From an uncultured archaeon (GTDB lineage Archaea > Asgardarchaeota > Lokiarchaeia > Sigyniarchaeales > SOKP01), in the NCBI GenBank assembly GCA_964388035.1, contig CAYLZE010000079.1:1-23470 (forward strand): a stretch of 23,470 bases of DNA. Reading direction: 5' to 3'. The position numbers were made by a program, and so were the translations under genes. Shown here piece after piece: positions 6,941 to 21,346 of the stretch. Every line of letters begins with the position of its first letter. Position 1 is the first letter of the stretch. The notes beneath the pieces are model-generated. The model saw nothing but the letters and a program-made list of their open reading frames with translations, searched no databases and was not told the origin of the DNA.

Positions 6941-8041
6941 TCATAATACTTCCCTCGACCATCGGGTCACTAAATTTGCCCATAATGAATTACCCCCACT
7001 GCTATTAATAAGAACAACGATTCCTTCTCCTTTCTCCGGAATAAAGATCATCATGCTTCTCCACCCAATTATGCCTCCACTATGTTGTATGACCTTTAAT
7101 CCTTTAATTTCACTAATATAATGGCCCAATCCGTAATACCAATCATACCCAAAATCATCTGAAGCATGTATTAGTTTGGAGTACATTTGGTCCAATGTCG
7201 ATGGTTTTAGGATCTCTCTTCCGGGCAGTTTCCTATTAGGGCCTCTCATTCCCCCCAAGGCAAATGTCAACATATCTATTATAGTTGCGCAGAGTCCTCC
7301 AGCTGCTTTAATTGTCCCAACATAAAGAGGCAAAGGTTTTGATTCCTCATTGTATGGTGTGGCGAATAACGCGGCATCCAAATCCGTTTTTTCATAGCTA
7401 GAAAAATTCATCCCAAAAGGGGTTAATATTTCTTTTTTCATGTAGTCAGAAAAGGTTTGTTTAGTTATCTCTTCAATAATTAATTGAAGAATTAAATAAC
7501 CGTCATTCGCATAAATAAACTCTTTTCCGGGCTCTTTTCTGACCTTAACGGGAGTTCCTTCCTTTTTGGGAATCAAGTTCCATTTTTCGCAATATTTCAA
7601 TTCTTCTTCATCTATTGGACCAGGCAACCTACCTGAAAGAATTTCTTCAATTGAAAGTGGTTCATAATTGGGATTATAGCTTGTATATTCAGATTCTTGG
7701 AACCCCGCAGTGTGACTCAAGAGTCTTCGAATTGATACTTGCTCATTTTCAAATTCAGAGGGTGGTAAATGCCAGCGGGTTAAATACTTTTCCGCAGGAG
7801 CATCCAAGTCTAAGCGGCCCTCTTCTACTAATTTCATTACACCCCATGTTGTAACGGATTTTGATATCGAAGCGACAGCAAAAATGGTGTGCTCAGTGAT
7901 AGGGATTTGTTGTTCCTTATTGGCGAATCCAAAGGGATTAATCGAAGAAATCTCATGATTTGATATAAATCCGATAGCTACTCCCGGAATATTCATTTTT
8001 TCAAGAAGTTTTGGGACAATCTTTTCCAAGCGTTTTATCAT
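6941..8041 (-). CDS. Serine hydrolase, beta-lactamase/AmpC-like (peptidase S12) family
   Basis: SxxK (SISK), LLSHTAG, YxN (YAN) and HSG motifs. No signal peptide is evident. Confidence 0.9.
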   Translation of the reverse strand: MIKRLEKIVPKLLEKMNIPGVAIGFISNHEISSINPFGFANKEQQIPITEHTIFAVASISKSVTTWGVMKLVEEGRLDLDAPAEKYLTRWHLPPSEFENEQVSIRRLLSHTAGFQESEYTSYNPNYEPLSIEEILSGRLPGPIDEEELKYCEKWNLIPKKEGTPVKVRKEPGKEFIYANDGYLILQLIIEEITKQTFSDYMKKEILTPFGMNFSSYEKTDLDAALFATPYNEESKPLPLYVGTIKAAGGLCATIIDMLTFALGGMRGPNRKLPGREILKPSTLDQMYSKLIHASDDFGYDWYYGLGHYISEIKGLKVIQHSGGIIGWRSMMIFIPEKGEGIVVLINSSGGNSLWANLVTRWSREVL

Positions 8042-8281
8042 GATACATCTTCCATAGATTATTTTTTTATAATTACATGAAGCAAAAAATAAGGTTTTTG
8101 ATTATAAAGTATCAGGCAGGATACCAATGCAATTAAAATAATAATTAAATGATGTAACATATCATTAGTCTTAATTCAATTTGGTGAGATTTCATAAAAA
8201 ATAAGTAAGTTATTAAAGAAAATGTAAGTTATAATAGTGTAAATATGAATAAATTGAAAATTAAAAAAATATGAATTTATC

Positions 8282-9094
8282 ATGCCTATTTTGGGAATAG
8301 ATTACGATAAATGTATCACGTGTAAAAATTGCTTGGAGATATGCACGAGTCCCGAAGCTTTTTTTAAAATGGACTCAAAAGATGAGAAAGTAATTTTCGA
8401 GGATCCCAACAAACAATGCATTCAATGTGGTCAGTGTATTGCCCAGTGCCCAGAAAATGCCATTCTCCATGAGGGAATGGGAGAGAGCTTTACTTTTATT
8501 AAAATAAAAAACTTACCTGATTTAATTGATTATGAAACACTTTTTAATTTCTTAGCGGTCAATCGTTCCACGCGTTTTTATAAACCCGATAAAGTTCCCG
8601 AAGATATTTTGGAAAAGGTGATAGGGGCAATGGAATATGCTCCTACCGCGGCTAACATGAGATCCGAGAATTTTTATATCATTTCTGATACGGACAAAAT
8701 TAACGCACTTTCCAAAGCTATTATTGAAGAATTCATGAAAGATCCTTCAGAAAAAGAGCACTGGAACGAAAGAATAGAACAATATGGAAAAACGAATCGC
8801 GATCCCGTGTTTTATAATGCCCCCCACGTGGTTCTGGTGACCTCCAATTTCAACATGATGATGGAAGGATTTAACGTTGGAAACATAATTACTTATGGAA
8901 GATTAGCAGCCCAAGCTTTGGGATTAGGAACTTCATGGATCGGGTATGTAACTATTGCTCTTGAGAAGAATCCAGAAATAAAGAAAGTCATAAAATTAAG
9001 AGGTACTGTAGTGGGTGCCTTCACCCTGGGATATCCTGATGTGTACTATTATCGTGTTCCACCCCGTTCAAGTAAAAAAGTCAAATTTCTTTAA
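8282..9094 (+). CDS. Nitroreductase-family protein with N-terminal 2x[4Fe-4S] ferredoxin domain
   Basis: CITCKNCLEIC and CIQCGQCIAQCP; nitroreductase motifs RSTRFY, APTAAN, AQALGLGTSWIG and LGYP. Confidence 0.92.
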   Translation: MPILGIDYDKCITCKNCLEICTSPEAFFKMDSKDEKVIFEDPNKQCIQCGQCIAQCPENAILHEGMGESFTFIKIKNLPDLIDYETLFNFLAVNRSTRFYKPDKVPEDILEKVIGAMEYAPTAANMRSENFYIISDTDKINALSKAIIEEFMKDPSEKEHWNERIEQYGKTNRDPVFYNAPHVVLVTSNFNMMMEGFNVGNIITYGRLAAQALGLGTSWIGYVTIALEKNPEIKKVIKLRGTVVGAFTLGYPDVYYYRVPPRSSKKVKFL

Positions 9095-13410: not shown

Positions 13411-14310
13411 TTAGGTTAAACTGAATGCTTTTAGAGCTTCCTCAGCTACATTTTCACCCCATTCTTGAATAAAATGGCCCGCTTCTTTTACTTCGAGGGG
13501 CTTTAGGCAAAACCGAATAATTTTGCTCAAGGGATACATGAGATCTGGTCCAAGCACGGGATCTTGCATTCCTATAGCCATGAAAACCTCTCCCTCCCAT
13601 TTATTTGATAAAAATTCCCTGGCTTCTTGAGATATTTTTGCACCTTCCATGGTCGGGTTATCGGGCACTATATTGGGAAAACGACGTACTCCTGCTTTAT
13701 AATTTATATCGGGAAAGGGTGCATTGTATGCCGCAAGTTCTTGAGCAGTTAAATGAGGACAAGAGCGTCCCATCAAGCGCCCCACATCCATGTCGGGATG
13801 CGTGTTATTCCATGCCCGCCAATCCAGGAATCCTTGAGTGAGTTCTATATCCCCCGTCGCAAGCATCGTATTCATTACGATTAATCGGGAAAATCGTAAG
13901 GGCATTTCCATTGGTAAAGTAAGTCCAAGGATCCCGCCCCAGTCTTGACAAACTAAGGTTATATTGTGGAAATCGAGGCGTTTAATAAAAGCTAATAAGG
14001 TATTTCGATGGAAATTAAAAGTATATAGTTCCTCATTAACCGGTTTATCAGATCGCCCGAAACCAAAAAAGTCTGGAGCAATTACTCTACAACCTGCTTC
14101 AAGAAATACAGGAATCATCCTTCTATATAAAAAACTCCATGACGGAGAACCGTGCAGGCACAAAAATTGCTCTTGGGAATTCGGATTTCCCTCATCTAAA
14201 TAATGCAAGCGCAAATTTTCAAATCCCCTGAGATTATCGATATAATGCGGTTTAAAAGGGAAGTTAGGCAGATTCAAGAAATTTTCATCCTGAGTCCTAA
14301 GTGCTTTCAA
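13411..14310 (-). CDS. Haloalkane dehalogenase, alpha/beta hydrolase, DhlA-like (subfamily I)
   Basis: LRLHYLDEG, CLHGSPSWSFLYR, GFGRSDKP, nucleophile QDWGG, cap Trp in GFLDW, acid QDPVLG and base AGHFIQE. TTG start with GGGGG RBS. Confidence 0.88.
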   Translation of the reverse strand: MKALRTQDENFLNLPNFPFKPHYIDNLRGFENLRLHYLDEGNPNSQEQFLCLHGSPSWSFLYRRMIPVFLEAGCRVIAPDFFGFGRSDKPVNEELYTFNFHRNTLLAFIKRLDFHNITLVCQDWGGILGLTLPMEMPLRFSRLIVMNTMLATGDIELTQGFLDWRAWNNTHPDMDVGRLMGRSCPHLTAQELAAYNAPFPDINYKAGVRRFPNIVPDNPTMEGAKISQEAREFLSNKWEGEVFMAIGMQDPVLGPDLMYPLSKIIRFCLKPLEVKEAGHFIQEWGENVAEEALKAFSLT

Positions 14311-14656
14311 ATCAATTACCCCCCATCAATTACTTTATCATTTTTATTTTATTAGAATTTTATCATTTCACTGCTTTAAGAATTACATTAATCAAAAAAA
14401 AACATGTACATTAATATAATAGAATTAAAATATCCTTTTATAAAATTATAAAGATTCCAATTTTAAAGAACTAATGTTTGAATCCAACCTAAAAAAAATT
14501 GACATTTAAATGTAGGAATGGCGGAAAAAAAGTGTTAAATTGATAAACTATATACTATTAATAAATCTAATTTTTCAGTGAAGACTTTTTAAGCTATTAA
14601 ATAAAGTAGCATTCAAGCTATTTTAATCAATCTAATAAACATTCCATGAAACGACC

Positions 14657-16120
14657 ATGAGTGAGAATGACGTTTTTGAGCAGTTAAAAAGAATCTGTGG
14701 TTCAAAAAATGTAATTACTGATCCCTCGATATTAAATCAATATTCCACAGATGCAAGTTTTTATGAGGGGATTTCCCCAGATTATATTTTCTATCCTTCT
14801 TCTAGTAGCGAAATTGAGAACGTGATCAAATTAGCTAATCAAATAAGCTTTCATGTTATCCCTATAAGTTCGAGTTTGGAAACTAAAATTCACGGGGATA
14901 CTCTGCCAAGGAAACAAAAGACCATTATTCTGAATCTCGCTAAAATGAATGATATTCTTTCAATCGATAGGAAAAATCGGGTAGTAATGGTGGAGCCGGG
15001 GGTCACATTTGAACAAATCATCCCTATTTTAAAGAAAAAAGGCGTTCGGTTACTAATGCCACTACATCCTCGTGCTAAGAAGTCCGTACTAACAACCGCA
15101 TTAGAAAGGGTTCCCATCACCATCCCTCGCTATCATTGGGACTCTTCCGATCCGCTATTATGTACAGAAGTTGTTTTCGGGACGGGGGATCTATTTCGAA
15201 CGGGAACCGCAGCAGGACCGGGCACGATTAAAGAACAAAAAAAGGGAGGGCAAGCACAAGTTAATCCCATGGGTCCCACGCATTTTAGCCCTTTTAGAGT
15301 CCTTCAAGGCGCCGAGGGAAGTCTGGGCGTGGTGACATGGGCATCCTTGAAATTAGAATTAATCCCTTCCAATCAAAAAGTATTCCATTTCCAGTCAGAA
15401 AATCTGGATGAATTGATGAAACTCCAGAATGAATTATTGAAATATCGATTATGTGATGAACTTTTTATTTTAAATGATTTAAATTTAGCGTCTTTAGTAA
15501 AACCTAATTCGCAAGATATAAACACGTTAACAAGTATTTTATCTAAATGGAATTTACTTTTTATAATCAGCGGGAATGGGACGTTTGCACAAGATAAGAT
15601 CTCGTATTTAGAAGGAGATATTTTAGATATTATTAAGAATCTTGAACTAAAGAAAACCGAACGAGCTGAGATTATTGATAGTAATGATATAATTAAATGC
15701 GTAAGCGAGCCCGCCTCGCAAGATTGGAGAACAAGACTTAAGGGGGGATTCCAAGATATTTTCTTCTTGACAAATTATGAAAGAGTTCATGAATTCATTT
15801 CAATGGTCGAAAAAATGACATCAGTGCAGTTTGGAGCATATATACAACCAATTAATCAAGGAACCTCATATTATTGTGAATTTGACCTTTTTTATGACCC
15901 TAAAAATGGAGTAATGAGTTCAGATCTTAAGAAATCTTTTTTAGCCATTAGTCAACATTTGATTGAAAAAGGAGCCTTTTTTAATAGACCTTACGGCTTA
16001 TGGGCTAAACCCGTTTTTGAAAATCATGAAGCTGAAACCATCACCGCTTTAAAAAAGGTAAAAAATATCTTTGATCCAAATCATGTTTTAAATCCGGGGG
16101 TGTTATGTTTTGACGATTAG
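14657..16120 (+). CDS. FAD-binding oxidoreductase, VAO/PCMH/GlcD superfamily (subunit A)
   Basis: VEPGVTF, EVVFGTGDLFRTG, GAEGSLGVVT and C-terminal KNIFDPNHVLNPG. Confidence 0.88.
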   Translation: MSENDVFEQLKRICGSKNVITDPSILNQYSTDASFYEGISPDYIFYPSSSSEIENVIKLANQISFHVIPISSSLETKIHGDTLPRKQKTIILNLAKMNDILSIDRKNRVVMVEPGVTFEQIIPILKKKGVRLLMPLHPRAKKSVLTTALERVPITIPRYHWDSSDPLLCTEVVFGTGDLFRTGTAAGPGTIKEQKKGGQAQVNPMGPTHFSPFRVLQGAEGSLGVVTWASLKLELIPSNQKVFHFQSENLDELMKLQNELLKYRLCDELFILNDLNLASLVKPNSQDINTLTSILSKWNLLFIISGNGTFAQDKISYLEGDILDIIKNLELKKTERAEIIDSNDIIKCVSEPASQDWRTRLKGGFQDIFFLTNYERVHEFISMVEKMTSVQFGAYIQPINQGTSYYCEFDLFYDPKNGVMSSDLKKSFLAISQHLIEKGAFFNRPYGLWAKPVFENHEAETITALKKVKNIFDPNHVLNPGVLCFDD

Positions 16121-17420
16121 TGAAGAAGAATATCAGAATATGATTAAGCGGTGCTTACGGTGTTCGGTATGTAAATGGATACCCCAAGTCATGATTAAGT
16201 CCCAAAAGTATGCATCCGCATGTCCCGCAATCGATATCTATAATTATCATCCCTATAGTGGCGGGGGAAGAATAATTCTTGCCTTAGCCTATGAGATGGG
16301 ACGTATTAAAGCCACGGAAGAGCTCAGGGATATCGTGTATAAATGTACGGCGTGTGGAAATTGCGCGATATCGTGCAAATATCTCAATACCTTAGAGCCG
16401 TTGGAAATAATCATGAAGCTGAGAGAAAAATTAGTTGATGAGGGAATGGGACCAATGCTAAAACAAAAGTTATATACAGACTCTATCAAGCAGTTAAATA
16501 ATCCATACAACGAGCCTCACGAAAAACGCATGGACTGGTTACCTAACGATATAAAATTGGATCCGGATGCAAAATTATTATATTACGTGGGATGTACTTC
16601 TTCTTATAGGAGAAAAGAAATGGCAATTGCAACTGCCAGAATTTTAAATGCAGCGGGAATTCCTTTTAATATCCTCCAAGAGGAGGAATTTTGTTGCGGG
16701 AGCCCCGTATTACGGGTTGGGGATGTCAAGACCTTCCAAGAGTATTTAAATAAAAATCTGGATATCATTGAAGCAAAAAATATCGAAACAATTGTATTTA
16801 GCTGTGCGGGATGCTATGATACCTTTAAAGTAGACTATCCTTTATACCGCGAGTACAATTTTAAAGTAATTCATGCGGTGGAATTATTTGATGAATTAAT
16901 AAGGAAAAGCCAACTGAAATTAACTCATCAAGTTCCTCTGACAGTAACGTATCATGATCCGTGCCATTTGGGAAGAAATGCCGAACGTCATCAGGAGTGG
17001 CAAGGGGACGTGGTACCTTTAATGTCTTTAGTAACTATTAATGTCCCGCCAAAACCCAAAAATACCGGCTCAAAAGGAATATACGATGCTCCCCGGAACA
17101 TTCTTAAGAAGATCCCGGGACTGGAGTTCGTAGAGATGGAGAGAATTAAAGAATATTCTTATTGTTGTGGAGCAGGAGCCGGAGTCAAGTCCGCATTTCC
17201 CGAAATGGCCATTAAAATCGCAGAAATAAGGATTGATGAAGCGGAAGCTTCGGGAGCAGATACTCTTGTATCAGCATGTCCTTTTTGCTCCACTAACCTG
17301 CAAGATGGTATCATGGAAGCAGGATCAAATTTAAAATATCATGATATTAGTGAACTAATATTAATGGCATTAGGTTTAAAGCCTATAGAATTGCAGCAAG
17401 ATAAGTCCAAGGAGGAGTGA
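16110..17420 (+). CDS. Fe-S oxidoreductase, GlcF/HdrD-like (two ferredoxin-type Cys clusters and two CCG domains)
   Basis: CLRCSVC...CP and CTACGNCAISC; CCG...SCAGC; YHDPC...CCGAG...SACPFC. The TTG start overlaps the previous gene by 11 nt. Confidence 0.9.
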   Translation: MTISEEEYQNMIKRCLRCSVCKWIPQVMIKSQKYASACPAIDIYNYHPYSGGGRIILALAYEMGRIKATEELRDIVYKCTACGNCAISCKYLNTLEPLEIIMKLREKLVDEGMGPMLKQKLYTDSIKQLNNPYNEPHEKRMDWLPNDIKLDPDAKLLYYVGCTSSYRRKEMAIATARILNAAGIPFNILQEEEFCCGSPVLRVGDVKTFQEYLNKNLDIIEAKNIETIVFSCAGCYDTFKVDYPLYREYNFKVIHAVELFDELIRKSQLKLTHQVPLTVTYHDPCHLGRNAERHQEWQGDVVPLMSLVTINVPPKPKNTGSKGIYDAPRNILKKIPGLEFVEMERIKEYSYCCGAGAGVKSAFPEMAIKIAEIRIDEAEASGADTLVSACPFCSTNLQDGIMEAGSNLKYHDISELILMALGLKPIELQQDKSKEE

Positions 17421-17423
17421 TAC

Positions 17424-19022
17424 GTGTTAGATAACAAAATTTTAGAAGACTTTCAAGAAATTGTGGGAAAAGAAAACATTGATGATGGGGAGGTCATTAC
17501 AAATGCTTATGCATATAACTGGTGTACGGAGTTTGTGAATTTCATGGAAGGGAAAGAACCCATTCCTTTTTCCCCCGTTCCCAAAGCCGTTCTTTTACCA
17601 TCCACGACTGAAGAAGTCCAGAAAATAATTCAAGCATGCAACAAGTATAAAATTACATTTAAAGCGCAATCCACGGGATTAGGTCCATGGAATCAGGTTA
17701 GTACGAAGAATTCCATCATAATTGATCTTCGAAGAATGAATAAAATCGTGAAGATTGATGAAAAGAACTTATATGCCGTGATTGAACCCTACGTGAGCGG
17801 AGCACAAATACAAGCGGAACTAATGAAATACGGACTGAATCTACACATGCCCGGAGCGGGTCCCATGGCCAGTCCATTAGCAAGTCATACCTCCATGGCG
17901 GGTCCGGGATTTACCTCCCCTCAAACGGGACATAGTGCAAGAAATGTATTAGGCACGGAATGGGTACTCCCAACGGGGGAGATCTTGAGATTAGGTTCTC
18001 TTGGTTTAAAAAGTAATCCCGATTGGTATTCTGGAGATGGCCCCGGACCGAGTTTAAGAGGTATAATGCGGGGTTGGATAGGAACGAAATCGGGCTTGGG
18101 AGTATTTACCAAGGTAGCCATTAAGCTCTTCCCGTATCCCTGTGAGACTAAATTCAATTTAAGCGGACACGCACCTAAGTTTGATTTTGAAATTCCTAAA
18201 TACATCAGGGCGTACGTGATAGATTGTGGAGATTTTAAAAAATTAGAAAAGACTTTTTTAAGAGTAGAGGAAGAAGAACTAGCATTTATATGCAGTCACA
18301 TGTCAAGCTTTGCAATCATGGCTGTTTTTTCCTATAGCATAGAAGATTTAATTGATAAAATGGCATTGGGAAGCATAAAACAGCCCCTATTAATTGTCAT
18401 CGCAGCTCGAACGGAAAGAGAGTTCAATTACAAGCAAAAAGTAATGGAGCATGTAATGCATGAATTGAATTTGACCAATATAATTGGTACGAAATATAAT
18501 CCCGAATCCATTTTTTATGCCGAGTGCCTACGTGCAAATTTAGGATATCACGGATTTGTAGCAACAGGCGGATTTCAATCCTCAAAAGGGCAGTGCGATA
18601 CAGCGGCCACTTGTCTTCGGGCAGAAGAAGATAATGTTCCATTAAAGCAACAATATGTTAAAAGAGGTGTTATTGCCAACGATTTTGGAGAGGGCGCATG
18701 GATGACCAGTTATGAAGGGGGTCATTTTTTTCACATGGAAGCTCCCACCATGTTTGATCAAACAGACTCGGAAAGCGTGAAAGGCATGGCAGAATACATG
18801 GAAGCTAGCAATCAGATGGACCTTCTAAAGAACATGGGGGCACCTTTTTTTATAGAAGGAGATAAATTGCATGACGAGTGGGGGCCTCACATGATGAATT
18901 ATCACGTCTGGTTGAGAAAAATTAAAGAAGCTTTTGATCCCAATGGAATCTCAGATGCTGGCTTTTACATTTCAGCTAAACCTAAAAATAAAATTAAGGA
19001 GGGGATAAACCATGATGAATAA
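17424..19022 (+). CDS. FAD-binding oxidoreductase, VAO/PCMH/GlcD superfamily (subunit B)
   Basis: VLLPSTTEEV, IDLRRMNKI, IEPYV, EWVLPTGEILRLG, GLGVFTK and KEAFDPNG. GTG start after GGAGGAG. Confidence 0.88.
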   Translation: MLDNKILEDFQEIVGKENIDDGEVITNAYAYNWCTEFVNFMEGKEPIPFSPVPKAVLLPSTTEEVQKIIQACNKYKITFKAQSTGLGPWNQVSTKNSIIIDLRRMNKIVKIDEKNLYAVIEPYVSGAQIQAELMKYGLNLHMPGAGPMASPLASHTSMAGPGFTSPQTGHSARNVLGTEWVLPTGEILRLGSLGLKSNPDWYSGDGPGPSLRGIMRGWIGTKSGLGVFTKVAIKLFPYPCETKFNLSGHAPKFDFEIPKYIRAYVIDCGDFKKLEKTFLRVEEEELAFICSHMSSFAIMAVFSYSIEDLIDKMALGSIKQPLLIVIAARTEREFNYKQKVMEHVMHELNLTNIIGTKYNPESIFYAECLRANLGYHGFVATGGFQSSKGQCDTAATCLRAEEDNVPLKQQYVKRGVIANDFGEGAWMTSYEGGHFFHMEAPTMFDQTDSESVKGMAEYMEASNQMDLLKNMGAPFFIEGDKLHDEWGPHMMNYHVWLRKIKEAFDPNGISDAGFYISAKPKNKIKEGINHDE

Positions 19023-19419
19023 CTCTAAAATAATAAGTGATCCCCCTCGAGGGTTTGCCGGAATAATTCAAAATCCTTTATGCTCTTTAAATTCTAATGA
19101 GCAGTTCAAAAAGCGTTATAATAATACGAACATGAAAATCTTGCTTAATCCCACTAATTTAAATCATGCGGCTTTGATTATTATTAGTCAAGGCCAAATT
19201 CAAGTTAAAAGTGTTGAAAATAAGCCAAAGGAGAATTTGGATAAGAATCAAACCGGCTGGGATGCTTTTTTAGAGATGAGGTCAGAAGTTTTTTTAGGAT
19301 TGGCGATGAATAGACTTTCTTTAGTGAGTGTTTTAATTAAGTGGATGCGGGGAGAAATAAGAATGAAGGGAATATTGAAATTGATGGTATTATTAAAGAT
19401 ATTTAAATTATTAAATTAA
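19012..19419 (+). CDS. SCP2 (sterol-carrier-protein-2)-like lipid-binding protein
   Basis: 135 aa ending in D..LEM....FL.LA...LS......RGEIRMKG..KL..L, the SCP2 C-terminal pattern. GGAGG RBS; overlaps the upstream gene by 11 nt. Confidence 0.7.
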   Translation: MMNNSKIISDPPRGFAGIIQNPLCSLNSNEQFKKRYNNTNMKILLNPTNLNHAALIIISQGQIQVKSVENKPKENLDKNQTGWDAFLEMRSEVFLGLAMNRLSLVSVLIKWMRGEIRMKGILKLMVLLKIFKLLN

Positions 19420-19455: not shown

Positions 19456-19869
19456 TCATATTATATATGATTTAAGTGGTATATTGAAAATCTTGAAATG
19501 ATCAGGGTTTCTAGTTATAATTTTTTTAGCAGAATGAGATTCTGCGGTTGCACCGATTATTAAGTCTTGAATCTCAATCGTGATACCATTATATTTTAAT
19601 TTCCCTTTAAGAATGCCTGCCCGTTCTAAAATTGGACGTGTTATATTAAATATTGTATATCCTTCTATTAGATTTAAAATTTTTTTCATATATTTTTCAA
19701 ATAGATCCTTACCATATTTTTCTAAAGTATATCCAAGTCCAACATATAATTCAGAGATAGTTATTGCTGATATAGCGCATACTTCATTCTTAAATTCGAG
19801 CATAACATTATCTACATTAGACCTTCCACGACCAATGTCTATAATTACATTAGTATCTAGCAAAATCAT
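19456..19869 (-). CDS. vapC: VapC/PIN-domain toxin (intact)
   Basis: ILLDTNVII, ISAITISEL, QDLIIGATA and TRNPDHF. The start overlaps the antitoxin stop by 1 nt. Confidence 0.92.
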   Translation of the reverse strand: MILLDTNVIIDIGRGRSNVDNVMLEFKNEVCAISAITISELYVGLGYTLEKYGKDLFEKYMKKILNLIEGYTIFNITRPILERAGILKGKLKYNGITIEIQDLIIGATAESHSAKKIITRNPDHFKIFNIPLKSYII

Positions 19870-20126
19870 TAAAGATTTTCCCCATTTCCAAGATTTTTGT
19901 TTGATTCTTTTTCCAAATCGTCCTTTCGAGCTTCATTAATAACACGTTCAAAATCATCCACCATTTTTTGTGGAAGGTCTTTGAAAATCCCATAGTGCCT
20001 TAATGGATCTCTCTTTCTATCTTTTATTAATCGTTCAATGACATCAGAGAAGCTTTCATCCGAACCTTTTAATTTTATTAAATCTCTATAAATTTTTTCT
20101 TTAATAGATATCATTTTTGATGTCAT
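19869..20126 (-). CDS. vapB: Archaeal VapB-family antitoxin (DUF217-like)
   Basis: KMISIKEKIYRDL..LK..DESFSDVIERLI, directly upstream of vapC. Confidence 0.9.
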   Translation of the reverse strand: MTSKMISIKEKIYRDLIKLKGSDESFSDVIERLIKDRKRDPLRHYGIFKDLPQKMVDDFERVINEARKDDLEKESNKNLGNGENL

Positions 20127-20278: not shown

Positions 20279-21346
20279 ATGACGATTAATAATAACGAAA
20301 AATCAAAAACGATAATTGAAGCTTGGTCAGGTCCGGGAAAAAAGGATGGAACGATAACTCAATTTAAACCCGAATTTGATGCTTTGCATATTGACATGAA
20401 AAAACATGGGAATTGCGAATGGTGGTATTTCGACGCCCGGTTGGACAATGGATATACTGTGGTTCTTTTCTTCCGAGCAAAACATGAAAGAACGGGAAAA
20501 ACGGGAGTGGAAGTCGTGATTTATAAACCTGGTCAAGATAAAGTCCAAAAAATCTATAATTATCATAGATCGGATTTTTCGGCATCAACCGAAAAAGCAG
20601 AAGTCAAAATAGGTAAAAATTACTTTAAGGCAGATAATTCAAATGAACTTTTTCCGTCCTATGAGATTGTTCTGGATGAAGAAGAATATGGTGTTCACTT
20701 GTCTTTTAAGGCGGAGGTACAAGCATGGATGCCAGGGAAAGGGCATACTCAATTTGGGAATTTAGGTGTGTTTGGATGGGTAGTTCCATTGCCACGTGCT
20801 AAAGTTACTGGGGACATTCGAATGGGAGAACAAATAATTTCCGTCCAAGGAATAGGATATCATGATCATAATTGGTTAGATTTTAACCTGGTAAGGATCA
20901 TTGAATATTGGATGTGGGGGCGCATGTATTCAGAAAATTTCACGCTAATTTATGCCCTTATCAAATGCAATAAAAAATGGGATGATTATCCGATCATGGT
21001 ACTCATGTTAGCAAAAAACGCGGAAATTCTAAAAAGCACGGGAGAATTCACCCTCAAACAAGAAGATTCTGAATTCTATGAAAAAATAGGGAAAAATTAT
21101 CCCAAGAAATTACTATTTCAATTTCCAGAAAACAATTCGATACAATTAGATGTGCAGGATATTATTGATTCTGATAACCTCCTCTTTGAACTACATCCTA
21201 TCATGAGATTTCTTGCTAAGAATGTCCTAAAAATTAATCCTAGTTATTTTAGATTTTTTTCAAATTTCAAAATGGGATTGAATCTTGATGGGAAAAAATT
21301 CGAAGAAAAGGGAACCACATTTCATGAAATGGTAATACTCAGATGA
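20279..21346 (+). CDS. CrtC/AttH-like (carotenoid 1,2-hydratase / lipocalin-like) protein
   Basis: EWWYFDA in the N-terminal barrel; GIGYHDHNW and WMWGR in the second barrel. Confidence 0.75.
   Translation: MTINNNEKSKTIIEAWSGPGKKDGTITQFKPEFDALHIDMKKHGNCEWWYFDARLDNGYTVVLFFRAKHERTGKTGVEVVIYKPGQDKVQKIYNYHRSDFSASTEKAEVKIGKNYFKADNSNELFPSYEIVLDEEEYGVHLSFKAEVQAWMPGKGHTQFGNLGVFGWVVPLPRAKVTGDIRMGEQIISVQGIGYHDHNWLDFNLVRIIEYWMWGRMYSENFTLIYALIKCNKKWDDYPIMVLMLAKNAEILKSTGEFTLKQEDSEFYEKIGKNYPKKLLFQFPENNSIQLDVQDIIDSDNLLFELHPIMRFLAKNVLKINPSYFRFFSNFKMGLNLDGKKFEEKGTTFHEMVILR

Follow-up and report, generated by a model that had tools for sequence, protein, structure and literature searches.

A flavoprotein/CCG iron–sulfur/flavoprotein gene trio with an SCP2-fold neighbour in Lokiarchaeia: a candidate oxygen-independent oxidoreductase

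Oxygen-independent hydroxylation by the 4-phenol oxidoreductases consists of a dehydrogenation followed by the addition of water. The group includes p-cresol methylhydroxylase (PDB 1dii/1wve), vanillyl-alcohol dehydrogenase (8s7p), eugenol oxidase (5fxd) and pinoresinol hydroxylase (9h40), and a p-cresol methylhydroxylase-type enzyme of Geobacter has two different flavoprotein isoforms. In enzymes of the GlcDEF and Dld/GlcD-HdrD types, two different FAD_binding_4 proteins are encoded in one operon with a protein carrying two [4Fe-4S] and two CCG motifs. In the EtfABCX, FixABCX and LctBCD systems, a VAO-superfamily dehydrogenase is linked to ETF, a FixC-like flavoprotein and a FixX-like ferredoxin. 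The SCP2 fold, otherwise prominent in eukaryotic lipid metabolism, occurs as the free-standing proteins UbiJ and UbiT of bacterial ubiquinone biosynthesis, which are encoded with soluble redox enzymes for an isoprenoid lipid. AttH-like hydratases hydrate isoprenoid double bonds produced by an anaerobic desaturase: the B12-radical-SAM tetraether desaturase Ted and the AttH-like hydroxy-GDGT synthase Hgs make hydroxy-GDGT lipids, and Asgard archaea are reported to have no close Hgs homologues (bioRxiv 10.1101/2025.10.20.683597). The logic of dehydrogenation and subsequent hydration is common to p-cresol methylhydroxylase and the Ted and Hgs pair.

Gene arrangement at the locus

The window analysed here is a 23,470-nucleotide stretch of a contig from an uncultured archaeon of the Lokiarchaeia. 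Between positions 14657 and 19419 it carries four co-oriented open reading frames, whose first and last junctions are 11-nt overlaps and whose middle junction is a 3-nt gap, and the coordinates confirm the arrangement described in the original prediction. The genes encode FAD-A (P0001; 14657–16120, plus strand, 487 aa), a divergent VAO/PCMH-superfamily flavoprotein paralogue; an HdrD/TfrB-like Fe-S subunit (P0002; 16110–17420, plus strand, 436 aa); FAD-B (P0003; 17424–19022, plus strand, 532 aa), with a PCMH/VAO-like FAD domain; and a small SCP2-fold protein (P0004; 19012–19419, plus strand, 135 aa). The internal starts (TTG at 16110, GTG at 17424 and ATG at 19012) each lie 7–10 nt 3' of a Shine-Dalgarno-like motif (GGGGGTG, GGAGG or GGAGGGG) within the preceding gene, and the N-termini of orthologues agree with all three. 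Since its reading frame overlaps that of FAD-B, the SCP2-fold protein is translationally coupled to this flavoprotein. No membrane helix was predicted in any of the four proteins, the maximum hydropathy of P0002 being 1.32.

The AT-rich intergenic region of 346 bp that precedes FAD-A (14311–14656, not assigned to a strand) is presumably its promoter region. It is shared here with an alpha/beta-hydrolase gene; in relatives, the neighbours across the matching region are a divergent FixC/GGR-like gene and a ferredoxin gene. On the 3' side lies a gene for a CrtC/AttH-like protein with two lipocalin domains (20279–21346, plus strand, 355 aa), separated at this locus from the SCP2 gene by an inserted vapBC pair; in relatives it is the module's fifth gene, and in 18 loci it directly follows SCP2 or FAD-B. 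The name "four-gene operon" understates the module, since the CrtC-like gene also belongs to it, as do the FixC/GGR-like and ferredoxin genes of relatives.

Flavoproteins, iron–sulfur subunit and SCP2-fold protein

FAD-B is the most conserved subunit, with Asgard orthologues 66–84% identical, and gives a full-length FAD_binding_4 match in Pfam (E 5.3e-24). Its PDB profile matches are confined to residues about 50–245, where PCMH-type enzymes rank first (9h40, E 7.3e-21; 7pbg, 3e-19; 1wve, 1.3e-18; residues about 52–240) and GlcD/LDHD-type enzymes match more weakly (1e-11 to 1e-13), which places this FAD-binding domain in the PCMH/VAO type. FAD-A, whose orthologues are 58–63% identical, has a partial FAD_binding_4 match (E 2.4e-13, profile positions 1–88 of 139) and a C-terminal tail matching FAD-oxidase_C; for its FAD domain, PCMH/VAO-type and GlcD/LDHD-type PDB matches were nearly equal in the profile search. 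The PCMH resemblance noted in the original prediction was borne out, as the closest solved relatives belong to the PCMH, vanillyl-alcohol and eugenol oxidase group. Both FAD domains find their best PDB matches among the 4-phenol oxidoreductases; an STG..LG loop and an EVVL..GE..RTG-type segment are shared features. Likeness to alkyl-DHAP synthase, also named there, holds weakly and for the FAD domain only, with matches to 2uuu and 4bby (E 1e-6 to 1e-10) ranked below the PCMH and LDHD groups.

The glycine-rich GGGTG loop of GlcD was correctly predicted to be replaced in both flavoproteins: SSSLETKIHG (residues 71–80 of P0001) and QSTGLGPW (82–89 of P0003) both correspond, in the alignment, to the loop RGAGTGLSGG of E. 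coli GlcD. In FAD-A, a family-specific P-x-S-S...G-D-T-x-P loop stands in place of the usual glycine-rich FAD pyrophosphate loop of other members and is nearly invariant among 50 archaeal and bacterial sequences. An FRTG-type segment had been claimed for both proteins; P0001 has it (EVVFGTGDLFRTG), but P0003 does not and carries EWVLPTGEILRLG instead.

Beyond the FAD domains the likeness to known enzymes ends. The cap and C-terminal halves of the flavoproteins aligned to no PDB chain in the profile search, the cap domain of the 4-phenol oxidoreductases included, and no relative of the cap/C-terminal half of FAD-B was detected among characterised enzymes. The single full-length AF2 model is poor (pLDDT 55.6), with Foldseek TM-scores of about 0.33, and the active site is not readable from it. 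The 4-phenol oxidoreductases differ further in using cytochrome c where this locus has an HdrD-like Fe-S subunit; a CxxCH motif, as in a PchC-type cytochrome subunit, occurs in none of the four proteins. A heteromeric A/B complex is proposed here, in which FAD-B is likely the catalytic VAO/PCMH-type subunit and FAD-A would be its obligate paralogous partner.

P0002 combines a Fer4_8 domain with two CCG stretches (Pfam, E 2.6e-36). By the HdrD/CCG definition of two ferredoxin-type 4Fe-4S motifs and two CX(31-39)CCX(35-36)CXXC motifs, its cysteine sets are complete for both kinds of cluster: C15/18/21/38 and C79/82/85/89 for the former, and C162-X32-C195C196-X35-C232xxC235 and C285-X66-C352C353-X36-C390xxC393 for the latter, the second CCG motif having a longer first spacer. 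The best NCBIfam match is TfrB (E 5.4e-63, 213 bits, below the cut-off of 385), with all others lower; P0002 therefore has no equivalog-level identity to TfrB, HdrD, GlpC, GlcF or LdhH in NCBIfam.

With two FAD_binding_4 proteins and a CCG Fe-S protein in one operon, the architecture matches GlcDEF; several orthologues are named "glycolate oxidase" by JGI, and weak NCBIfam matches to glcD, glcE and glcF occur. It is nevertheless highly improbable that the trio is an ordinary glycolate, D-lactate or D-2-hydroxyacid dehydrogenase of the GlcDEF or Dld-HdrD type with SCP2 as an unrelated neighbour. The scores for P0001 and P0003 are 58.4 and 64.7 bits against a cut-off of 567.9 for glcD (TIGR00387) and 20.9 and 13.5 against 284 for GlcE (NF008439), and the GlcF score (NF008434) is 50.3 against 333. 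The hhalign alignment to E. coli GlcD spans the FAD domain only, ending at about residue 245; HAGDGNMH (386) and GEHG (430) of that protein are missing from both P0001 and P0003; and P0003 has no FAD-oxidase_C match in Pfam, while its partly conserved segment Y-E-x-G-H-x-x-H-x-E differs from the His/His/Glu motifs of GlcD. The CCG gene lies here between the two flavoprotein genes, SCP2, CrtC-like and FixC/GGR-like genes go with the trio, and the SCP2 gene, besides overlapping FAD-B, keeps its synteny in 20 loci. A GlcDEF or D-lactate identity is largely refuted by the absence of the HxGDGNxH and EHG motifs and by family scores of about a tenth of the cut-offs. The view that this is not a simple lactate or glycolate dehydrogenase therefore stands, with metal-site motifs absent and only the FAD domains aligning to GlcD or to PDB enzymes, and the widespread automatic annotation "glycolate oxidase" is corrected here.

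The fourth protein, P0004, has no Pfam match of its own, but 4 of 18 family members match PF02036 (best E 3.6e-7) and the family profile picks up human SCP2 (E 0.015). Its AF2 model (pLDDT 89, pTM 0.82) upholds the SCP2 fold predicted for this reading frame: the top 46 Foldseek matches in the PDB are all SCP2 folds, UbiJ-SCP2 being first (E 3.9e-5, TM 0.6), and the matches also include an alkylsulfatase C-domain, AF1534 and human SCP2. UbiJ and UbiT share only 11–14% sequence identity with P0004, their partners are class A flavin monooxygenases or U32 proteins rather than VAO-type and HdrD-like proteins, and a quinone pathway is not evident here. SCP2-like paralogues in these Asgard archaea are found behind, or fused to, genes for URO-D/corrinoid (B12) methyltransferases of the O-demethylase type.

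Distribution and neighbourhoods of the trio

The FAD-A–CCG–FAD-B trio forms an uncharacterised family of wide distribution, and no biochemically characterised member was found in the literature. A genome scan confirmed at least 501 related loci, and the neighbourhoods of 80 loci were surveyed. The order FAD-A, CCG, FAD-B is kept in about 55 of these 80, the trio occurring in Asgard archaea, Chloroflexota (Dehalococcoidia), Actinomycetota, Desulfobacterota and Hadarchaeota, and at least 20 other Asgard loci have the same gene order as here. This recurrence of trio and gene order puts the arrangement far beyond chance. A natural fusion of FAD-A and FAD-B (P0150, 1066 aa) argues for one complex.

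SCP2 is syntenic with the trio in 20 of the 80 loci and was found neither in Hod-, Hel-, Thor- or Jord-type Asgard loci nor in any bacterial trio locus of this set. Its expected conservation with the triad extends to Loki-type loci, and SCP2 is a Loki-clade add-on outside the conserved core. In that clade the CrtC/AttH-like gene usually comes next after it. The CrtC-like protein scores 27.6 bits for CrtC (PF07143) against a cut-off of 22.5, and Svf1_C (24.7 against 25) and DA_N fall just under theirs; all 16 orthologues match CrtC and 14 of the 16 match Svf1_C. The family profile matches PDB 7a0q, a "CrtC domain-containing protein" (E 1.8e-4).

In 20 loci the trio is next to a FixC/GGR-like flavoprotein, joined in 16 of them by an 89-aa ferredoxin; five of the 20 are bacterial, three having ETF genes called beside the trio. 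ETF alpha and beta, FixC-like and ferredoxin genes are interleaved with the trio in the bacterial loci L035, L073, L077 and L111. Of the ETF/Fix-type partners, Asgard loci have just the FixC/GGR-like and ferredoxin genes adjacent. Genome G000 has ETF genes elsewhere. At the present locus the FixC/GGR-like partner is missing from the neighbourhood; its gene lies unlinked in the genome and looks broken. The partner flavoprotein is equidistant between Thermotoga maritima FixC (7koe_C, E 1e-23) and a lipid geranylgeranyl reductase (3oz2, 2.5e-22), which, like the additional HdrD-like subunit and second flavoprotein, sets these loci apart from EtfABCX, FixABCX and LctBCD. In the bacterial locus L032 the trio has B12-binding and URO-D genes for neighbours, and other bacterial loci have genes for CoA ligases, acyl-CoA dehydrogenases, an old-yellow-enzyme, enoyl-CoA hydratase and AOR.

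Proposed chemistry and its alternatives

With moderate confidence, we read the four genes as encoding a soluble heteromeric flavo-iron-sulfur oxidoreductase of GlcDEF-like architecture and of a distinct, uncharacterised family, for which dehydrogenation and hydration are the favoured chemistry. Complex formation, the catalytic subunit, the direction of electron flow, the hydrophobic nature of the substrate and the hydration step are what we infer. A hydrophobic substrate, possibly an isoprenoid or alkylphenol, would be dehydrogenated independently of oxygen, and electrons would pass from the flavin through the two 4Fe-4S and two CCG-type clusters of the HdrD-like subunit to an external redox chain, which may be the FixC/GGR-like flavoprotein and two-[4Fe-4S] ferredoxin in related genomes and EtfAB in bacteria. 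Loki-clade loci add to the trio an SCP2-fold protein, which would hold or deliver the substrate, and a predicted CrtC/AttH-like hydratase, which would then add water, possibly for a net anaerobic hydroxylation. These two additions point to a water-insoluble substrate. The hydrophobic substrate of the original prediction, which had not considered the CrtC/AttH-like gene, gains independent support from this conserved neighbour, the substrate itself being a prediction.

A more specific version is offered tentatively and is, on its own, unlikely: the trio could be a flavin/Fe-S oxygen-independent desaturase of saturated or partly saturated isoprenoid chains, such as archaeal ether lipids or sedimentary isoprenoids, with SCP2 presenting the substrate, the CrtC/AttH-like protein forming a tertiary alcohol, and the FixC/GGR-like protein and ferredoxin closing the redox loop. 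As with Ted and Hgs, the gene of an anaerobic desaturating enzyme would be tightly linked to that of an AttH/CrtC-family hydratase, in the same proposed two-step path by which an isoprenoid chain gains a tertiary alcohol; desaturation falls to a radical SAM enzyme in that pair and would fall to a flavoprotein here, and the CrtC-like protein is likened to Hgs at the family level, not by sequence. It is also doubtful, though conceivable, that the module acts on a 4-alkylphenol or methoxylated aromatic compound derived from lignin or of a similar kind. SCP2 would then hold a poorly soluble phenolic, and the module would correspond to p-cresol methylhydroxylase, vanillyl-alcohol dehydrogenase or pinoresinol hydroxylase but work anaerobically and with no cytochrome. 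The nearest solved relatives of the FAD domains speak for this reading, as do the methyltransferase linkage of the SCP2-like paralogues, the B12-binding and URO-D genes in L032 and the bacterial CoA ligase, acyl-CoA dehydrogenase and similar neighbours, which resemble aromatic or alicyclic acid pathways. However, the resemblance is limited to the FAD domain, phenolate-binding and covalent-flavin residues were not located in the unalignable cap domain, the cytochrome c subunit is absent, and both the CrtC-like neighbour and the likeness of the partner flavoprotein to GGR favour isoprenoids.

The linkage to ETF/FixCX agrees with a reductive role coupled to bifurcation no less than with an oxidative role. 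On this alternative, the trio would sit at the high-potential end of an electron-bifurcating system of the ETF/FixCX type, as the terminal reductase of a C=C bond, or of a disulfide at the CCG clusters, and would thereby give fermentative sediment anaerobes an electron sink. The interleaved bacterial loci, a partner as near to FixC as to geranylgeranyl reductase, and full cysteine sets in both CCG motifs, as in heterodisulfide reductase, agree with such a role, which we still regard as improbable: ETF-linked VAO-type enzymes such as LctD (PDB 7qh2, among the matches) are oxidative, a thiol cofactor pathway was not identified, and the CrtC-like hydratase better suits dehydrogenation followed by hydration.

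Should the favoured dehydrogenation and hydration hold, an uncharacterised family would let the anaerobes that dominate marine and subsurface sediments (Asgard archaea, Dehalococcoidia, Actinomycetota and Desulfobacterota) attack or modify water-insoluble compounds without oxygen. This would bear on the modification or recycling of archaeal isoprenoid lipids, on the turnover of recalcitrant lipid or lignin-type carbon in anoxic sediments, and on the use of SCP2-type lipid-handling proteins by Asgard archaea. Isoprenoid desaturation in particular would mean that Asgard archaea and Dehalococcoidia-type bacteria have in common a second route, independent of radical SAM chemistry, by which isoprenoid lipids are desaturated or hydroxylated, or are broken down anaerobically.

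Because the search of most non-Loki loci turned up neither SCP2 nor the CrtC-like gene, the two may mark a clade-specific substrate rather than the general function of the family. FAD-B orthologues were found in only 16 of 41 related genomes, and 12 mostly actinobacterial loci have FAD-B without FAD-A or CCG. The CrtC-like gene also adjoins the fused trio in L041, with 45% identity.

Operon anatomy and comparison with known enzymes

The window is contig C79 of a 5.5-Mb Loki-type MAG of the Promethearchaeota, and the four ORFs called on its plus strand encode the flavoprotein FAD-A (P0001, 487 aa, 14657-16120; FAD_binding_4), a CCG iron-sulfur subunit (P0002, 436 aa, 16110-17420; Fer4_8 and two CCG domains), a second flavoprotein, FAD-B (P0003, 532 aa, 17424-19022; FAD_binding_4), and an SCP2-like protein (P0004, 135 aa, 19012-19419; predicted SCP2 fold). 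The ORF coordinates bear out the tight junctions reported for these co-oriented genes, namely an 11-nt overlap, a 3-nt gap and an 11-nt overlap. GGGGGTG, GGAGG or GGAGGGG lies 7-10 nt upstream of each internal start, inside the preceding gene, and these G-rich motifs, together with the aligned N-termini of orthologues, make the non-ATG internal starts credible. No membrane helix was predicted in the four products (maximum Kyte-Doolittle 19-mer score 1.55). The locus encodes a soluble set of two flavoproteins and an HdrD-like Fe-S subunit, with SCP2-fold and AttH/CrtC-like proteins.

The Pfam match of FAD-A to FAD_binding_4 covers only positions 1-88 of the 139-position profile, with a further match to the last 25 residues of FAD-oxidase_C; FAD-B matches the whole FAD_binding_4 domain and no other Pfam domain. 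Alignment confirmed that the FAD pyrophosphate loops of both proteins are unlike the RGAGTGLSGG of GlcD. The FAD-B loop, KAQSTGLGPWNQ, is invariant among Asgard orthologues and is similar to STGxNLGYG, the loop of PCMH-type enzymes, but shorter by two residues. The FAD-A loop, P-x-S-S-...-[RH]-G-D-T-x-P, is kept in 50 FAD-A sequences of archaeal and bacterial origin, and is therefore a selected family signature and not a product of decay; FAD-A may be an FAD binder with an altered pyrophosphate loop. Residue 406 of P0001 (window 15872-15874), within the segment Q-G-x-x-x-H-C-E-F, is Tyr; it is His in 47 of 50 FAD-A relatives, Tyr in one further Loki-type orthologue and Gln in one.

Against the PDB, both flavoproteins aligned only over residues about 5-260, and in hhalign comparisons of their family profiles with Escherichia coli GlcD the FAD domain alone aligned; about 190 residues are alignable with GlcD/GlcE, D-LDH, PchF and ADPS. 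The segments HAGDGNMH and GEHG supply the His/His/Glu residues typical of the GlcD subfamily, and neither pattern of E. coli GlcD was found in P0001 or P0003. The GlcD, GlcE and GlcF family models scored roughly a tenth of their cut-offs. On motifs and scores an ordinary GlcDEF or D-LDH enzyme was rejected, in line with the original prediction, which denied a simple glycolate or lactate dehydrogenase. In profile searches of the PDB, the nearest solved enzymes to FAD-B were those of the 4-phenol oxidoreductase group (E 1e-18 to 1e-21), comprising pinoresinol hydroxylase (9h40), 4-ethylphenol oxidase (7pbg), PCMH (1wve), vanillyl-alcohol oxidase (9ffk) and vanillyl-alcohol dehydrogenase (8s7p), whereas glycolate oxidase (9qgz), LctD and mouse LDHD were weaker (1e-11 to 1e-13). 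Alkyl-DHAP synthase was weaker still (1e-7 to 1e-10) and was rejected, its matches covering the FAD domain only. For FAD-A, the 4-phenol and GlcD/LDHD groups were nearly equal. The PCMH of Geobacter has two flavoprotein isoforms, a parallel to the FAD-A/FAD-B pair. The AlphaFold2 model of FAD-B, built from a shallow 16-row alignment, was poor (pLDDT 55.6), and its Foldseek ranking (TM about 0.33) adds nothing to what the sequence shows.

The best NCBIfam match of the CCG subunit was the thiol:fumarate reductase subunit TfrB (5.4e-63, below cut-off). Its 18 cysteines, arranged as CxxCxxC...C, CxxCxxCxxxC, C-X32-CC-X35-CxxC and C-X66-CC-X36-CxxC, make up a full HdrD-type set.

P0004 alone gave no Pfam match and no PDB sequence match. 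Conserved homologues occur in 36 of 41 related genomes; Pfam SCP2 was matched by 4 of 18 aligned family members (best 3.6e-7), and the family profile found human SCP2 at E 0.015. The AlphaFold2 model was confident (pLDDT 89, pTM 0.82), and its best 46 Foldseek matches in the PDB were all SCP2-fold proteins, headed by UbiJ-SCP2 (E 3.9e-5, TM 0.6) and followed by alkylsulfatase C-domains, Archaeoglobus fulgidus AF1534 and human SCP2. The family matches, the confident model and the structural hits together confirm the SCP2 identity of 19012-19419. A complex prediction for FAD-B with SCP2 scored 0.00 twice, which speaks neither for nor against binding. A preprint on Asgard lipid-transfer proteins goes no further than mentioning one SCP-2 homologue in MK-D1.

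Distribution and conserved neighbours

FAD-B belongs to a large family: of 8000 candidates scored from a 90%-identity database, 2953 matched at E ≤0.001, and the best 120 were 66-84% identical and Asgard wherever a source is named. A 50%-identity library yielded 159 clusters at E ≤1e-30, including many full-length matches with 30-41% identity. At least 501 related loci were confirmed when one genome per species was scanned, and the best 80 of them were analysed. Their archaeal part comprises Loki-, Hod-, Hel-, Thor-, Hermod-, Jord- and Freya-type Asgards and Hadarchaeota, and their bacterial part Dehalococcoidia and other Chloroflexota, Actinomycetota (Solincola, Geothermincola), Syntrophaceae, Desulfobacteraceae, Desulfomonilia and Myxococcales. 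Family HMMs found the order FAD-A, CCG, FAD-B in about 55 of the 80 loci, and variant orders include CCG-B-A, A-B-CCG and tandem B copies. One locus, L041, encodes a natural fusion (P0150, L041:6001-9201, 1066 aa) with FAD-A at residues 1-484 and FAD-B at 506-1062, directly downstream of an HdrD-like and a CrtC-like gene. The conserved adjacency across phyla and this fusion suggest that FAD-A and FAD-B would form part of one complex. FAD-B stands without partners in 12 loci, mostly actinobacterial, and this occurrence, together with its higher conservation, suggests that it is the putative catalytic subunit. Within the related genomes, FAD-B orthologues (E ≤1e-60) were found in only 16 of 41, and sister family f2, with 11 genomes of which two are single-contig, yielded none; the module is therefore accessory and not core.

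All neighbouring ORFs of the 80 loci were clustered and representatives annotated. The association of SCP2 with the trio (FAD-A, CCG and FAD-B) stood in part: an SCP2-like gene lies 3' of FAD-B in 20 loci, which are all of Loki type and have an FAD-B of at least 69% identity, but none was found within 8 kb in L046 (Hod-labelled), L070 and L071 (Thor), L064 and L065 (Hel), L080 (Jord) or any bacterial locus of the survey. SCP2 is clade-restricted and was rejected as a universal subunit of the trio family. In L012 (genome G010) the SCP2-like gene runs towards FAD-B rather than in the same direction, and in L018 (G024:C6:750400-763000) the CCG and FAD-B pair is tandemly duplicated and the SCP2-like gene follows some 3 kb further downstream. 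An SCP2-like paralogue of the window's own genome (G000:C2:142501-142845; L029:7978-8358) comes after genes for B12-binding, URO-D and MtrH proteins, and an AOR gene lies farther upstream; in the related genome G019 (L128:1733-3301) a 523-aa URO-D protein carries an SCP2-like domain as a C-terminal fusion.

Genes for a FixC/GGR-like flavoprotein and a ferredoxin are linked to the set, as are ETF genes in bacteria. The gene for the 466-aa FixC/GGR-like flavoprotein adjoins the trio in 20 of the 80 loci. In Loki-type loci it stands upstream and is divergently oriented; in L068, L070 and the bacterial loci it has the same orientation as the trio. Of these 20 loci, 16 also have a gene for an 89-aa 2x[4Fe-4S] ferredoxin. 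The flavoprotein aligned across the whole geranylgeranyl-reductase model TIGR02032 (8.1e-37, below cut-off) and to part of the FixC model (1.3e-24), and in the PDB it was equidistant from Thermotoga maritima FixC (7koe_C, 1e-23) and the Thermoplasma digeranylgeranylglycerophospholipid reductase (3oz2, 2.5e-22). Archaeal and bacterial copies share 36% identity over their full length. Among the 80 loci, 11 bacterial ones have ETF alpha or beta genes within the trio or next to it, as do the metagenome contigs L032, L035 and L037. A 350-aa CrtC/AttH-like gene occurs in 18 of the 80 loci, 3' of SCP2 or, in L070 and L072, straight after FAD-B. All 16 aligned members of this family match Pfam CrtC, the N-terminal lipocalin domain of carotenoid 1,2-hydratase, and 14 match Svf1_C; the profile found 7a0q, a 'CrtC domain-containing protein', in the PDB (1.8e-4). 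The orthologue in the window (20279-21346) scored 27.6 bits for CrtC against a cut-off of 22.5, and the L041 copy, immediately 5' of the CCG gene, is 45% identical to it. Other bacterial neighbours include genes for CoA ligases, acyl-CoA dehydrogenases, an old yellow enzyme, SDRs, enoyl-CoA hydratase, AOR, MFS transporters, and B12-binding and URO-D methyltransferase proteins. In bacterial contig L032 a U32-peptidase-family gene (7443-8477) overlaps the FAD-B end, the position held by SCP2 in Loki-type Asgards, with ETF, CoA ligase and B12/URO-D genes nearby; the U32 family includes the anaerobic hydroxylases UbiU/UbiV.

Candidate chemistry and substrate

VAO/PCMH enzymes dehydrogenate C-H bonds beside activating groups, and in the PCMH type this is followed by addition of water to the product. 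CCG proteins connect flavins electronically with disulfides, quinones or other carriers; SCP2 domains bind lipids (e.g., UbiJ and UbiT with isoprenoid quinone intermediates), and AttH/CrtC enzymes form tertiary alcohols by hydrating the double bonds of isoprenoids. The AttH-like hydratase Hgs hydrates double bonds put anaerobically into GDGT lipids by the linked desaturase Ted (bioRxiv 10.1101/2025.10.20.683597). By analogy with these four protein groups and with Ted/Hgs, we favour a scheme in which SCP2 would present a hydrophobic substrate, FAD-B would dehydrogenate it, and electrons would exit through the HdrD-like subunit to a ferredoxin, FixC-like and ETF chain; a final addition of water by the CrtC-like protein would follow in the Loki clade. 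We give about an even chance to a heteromeric oxidoreductase that belongs to a new family and acts on a hydrophobic substrate. SCP2 docking, the direction of catalysis and the substrate are all inferred.

We rate isoprenoid and phenolic substrates about equally, and each taken singly is rather improbable. The case for a phenolic rather than isoprenoid substrate, to which we give this same low probability, is built on the PCMH-like FAD domains, on the recurrent pairing of SCP2-like paralogues with corrinoid/URO-D O-demethylase-type genes (the L029 paralogue and the URO-D-SCP2 fusion in G019) and on the B12/URO-D genes near the trio in L032. Less probably, the trio may instead work reductively, coupled to bifurcation, the opposite direction to the dehydrogenation that we favour. 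No description of the trio/SCP2 module was found in the searchable literature; the GlcDEF-like architecture and VAO/PCMH chemistry are known, and the family and its accessory parts are new.

State of the module in the source genome

In the same-genus genome G001 (L043) the order is ferredoxin, GGR/FixC-like, FAD-A, CCG, FAD-B, SCP2 and CrtC-like, which is the ancestral order. In the window, a vapBC-like pair on the minus strand (19456-20126), consisting of a PIN-type toxin ORF (137 aa, 19456-19869) and an 85-aa ORF (19869-20126), lies between the SCP2 and CrtC-like genes; it looks like an insertion splitting the module, because the flanking genes adjoin in 18 related loci. The divergent upstream slot, held by the FixC/GGR-like gene in relatives, is occupied by a candidate alpha/beta-hydrolase ORF (13411-14310, minus strand). 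The FixC/GGR-like orthologue of this genome is located on contig C89 at about 16436-17776 (L123/L127), where in-frame stops break it into ORFs of 98 and 227 aa, and no gene for the 89-aa ferredoxin was found adjoining it there. Two ETF-alpha genes are present elsewhere in the genome.
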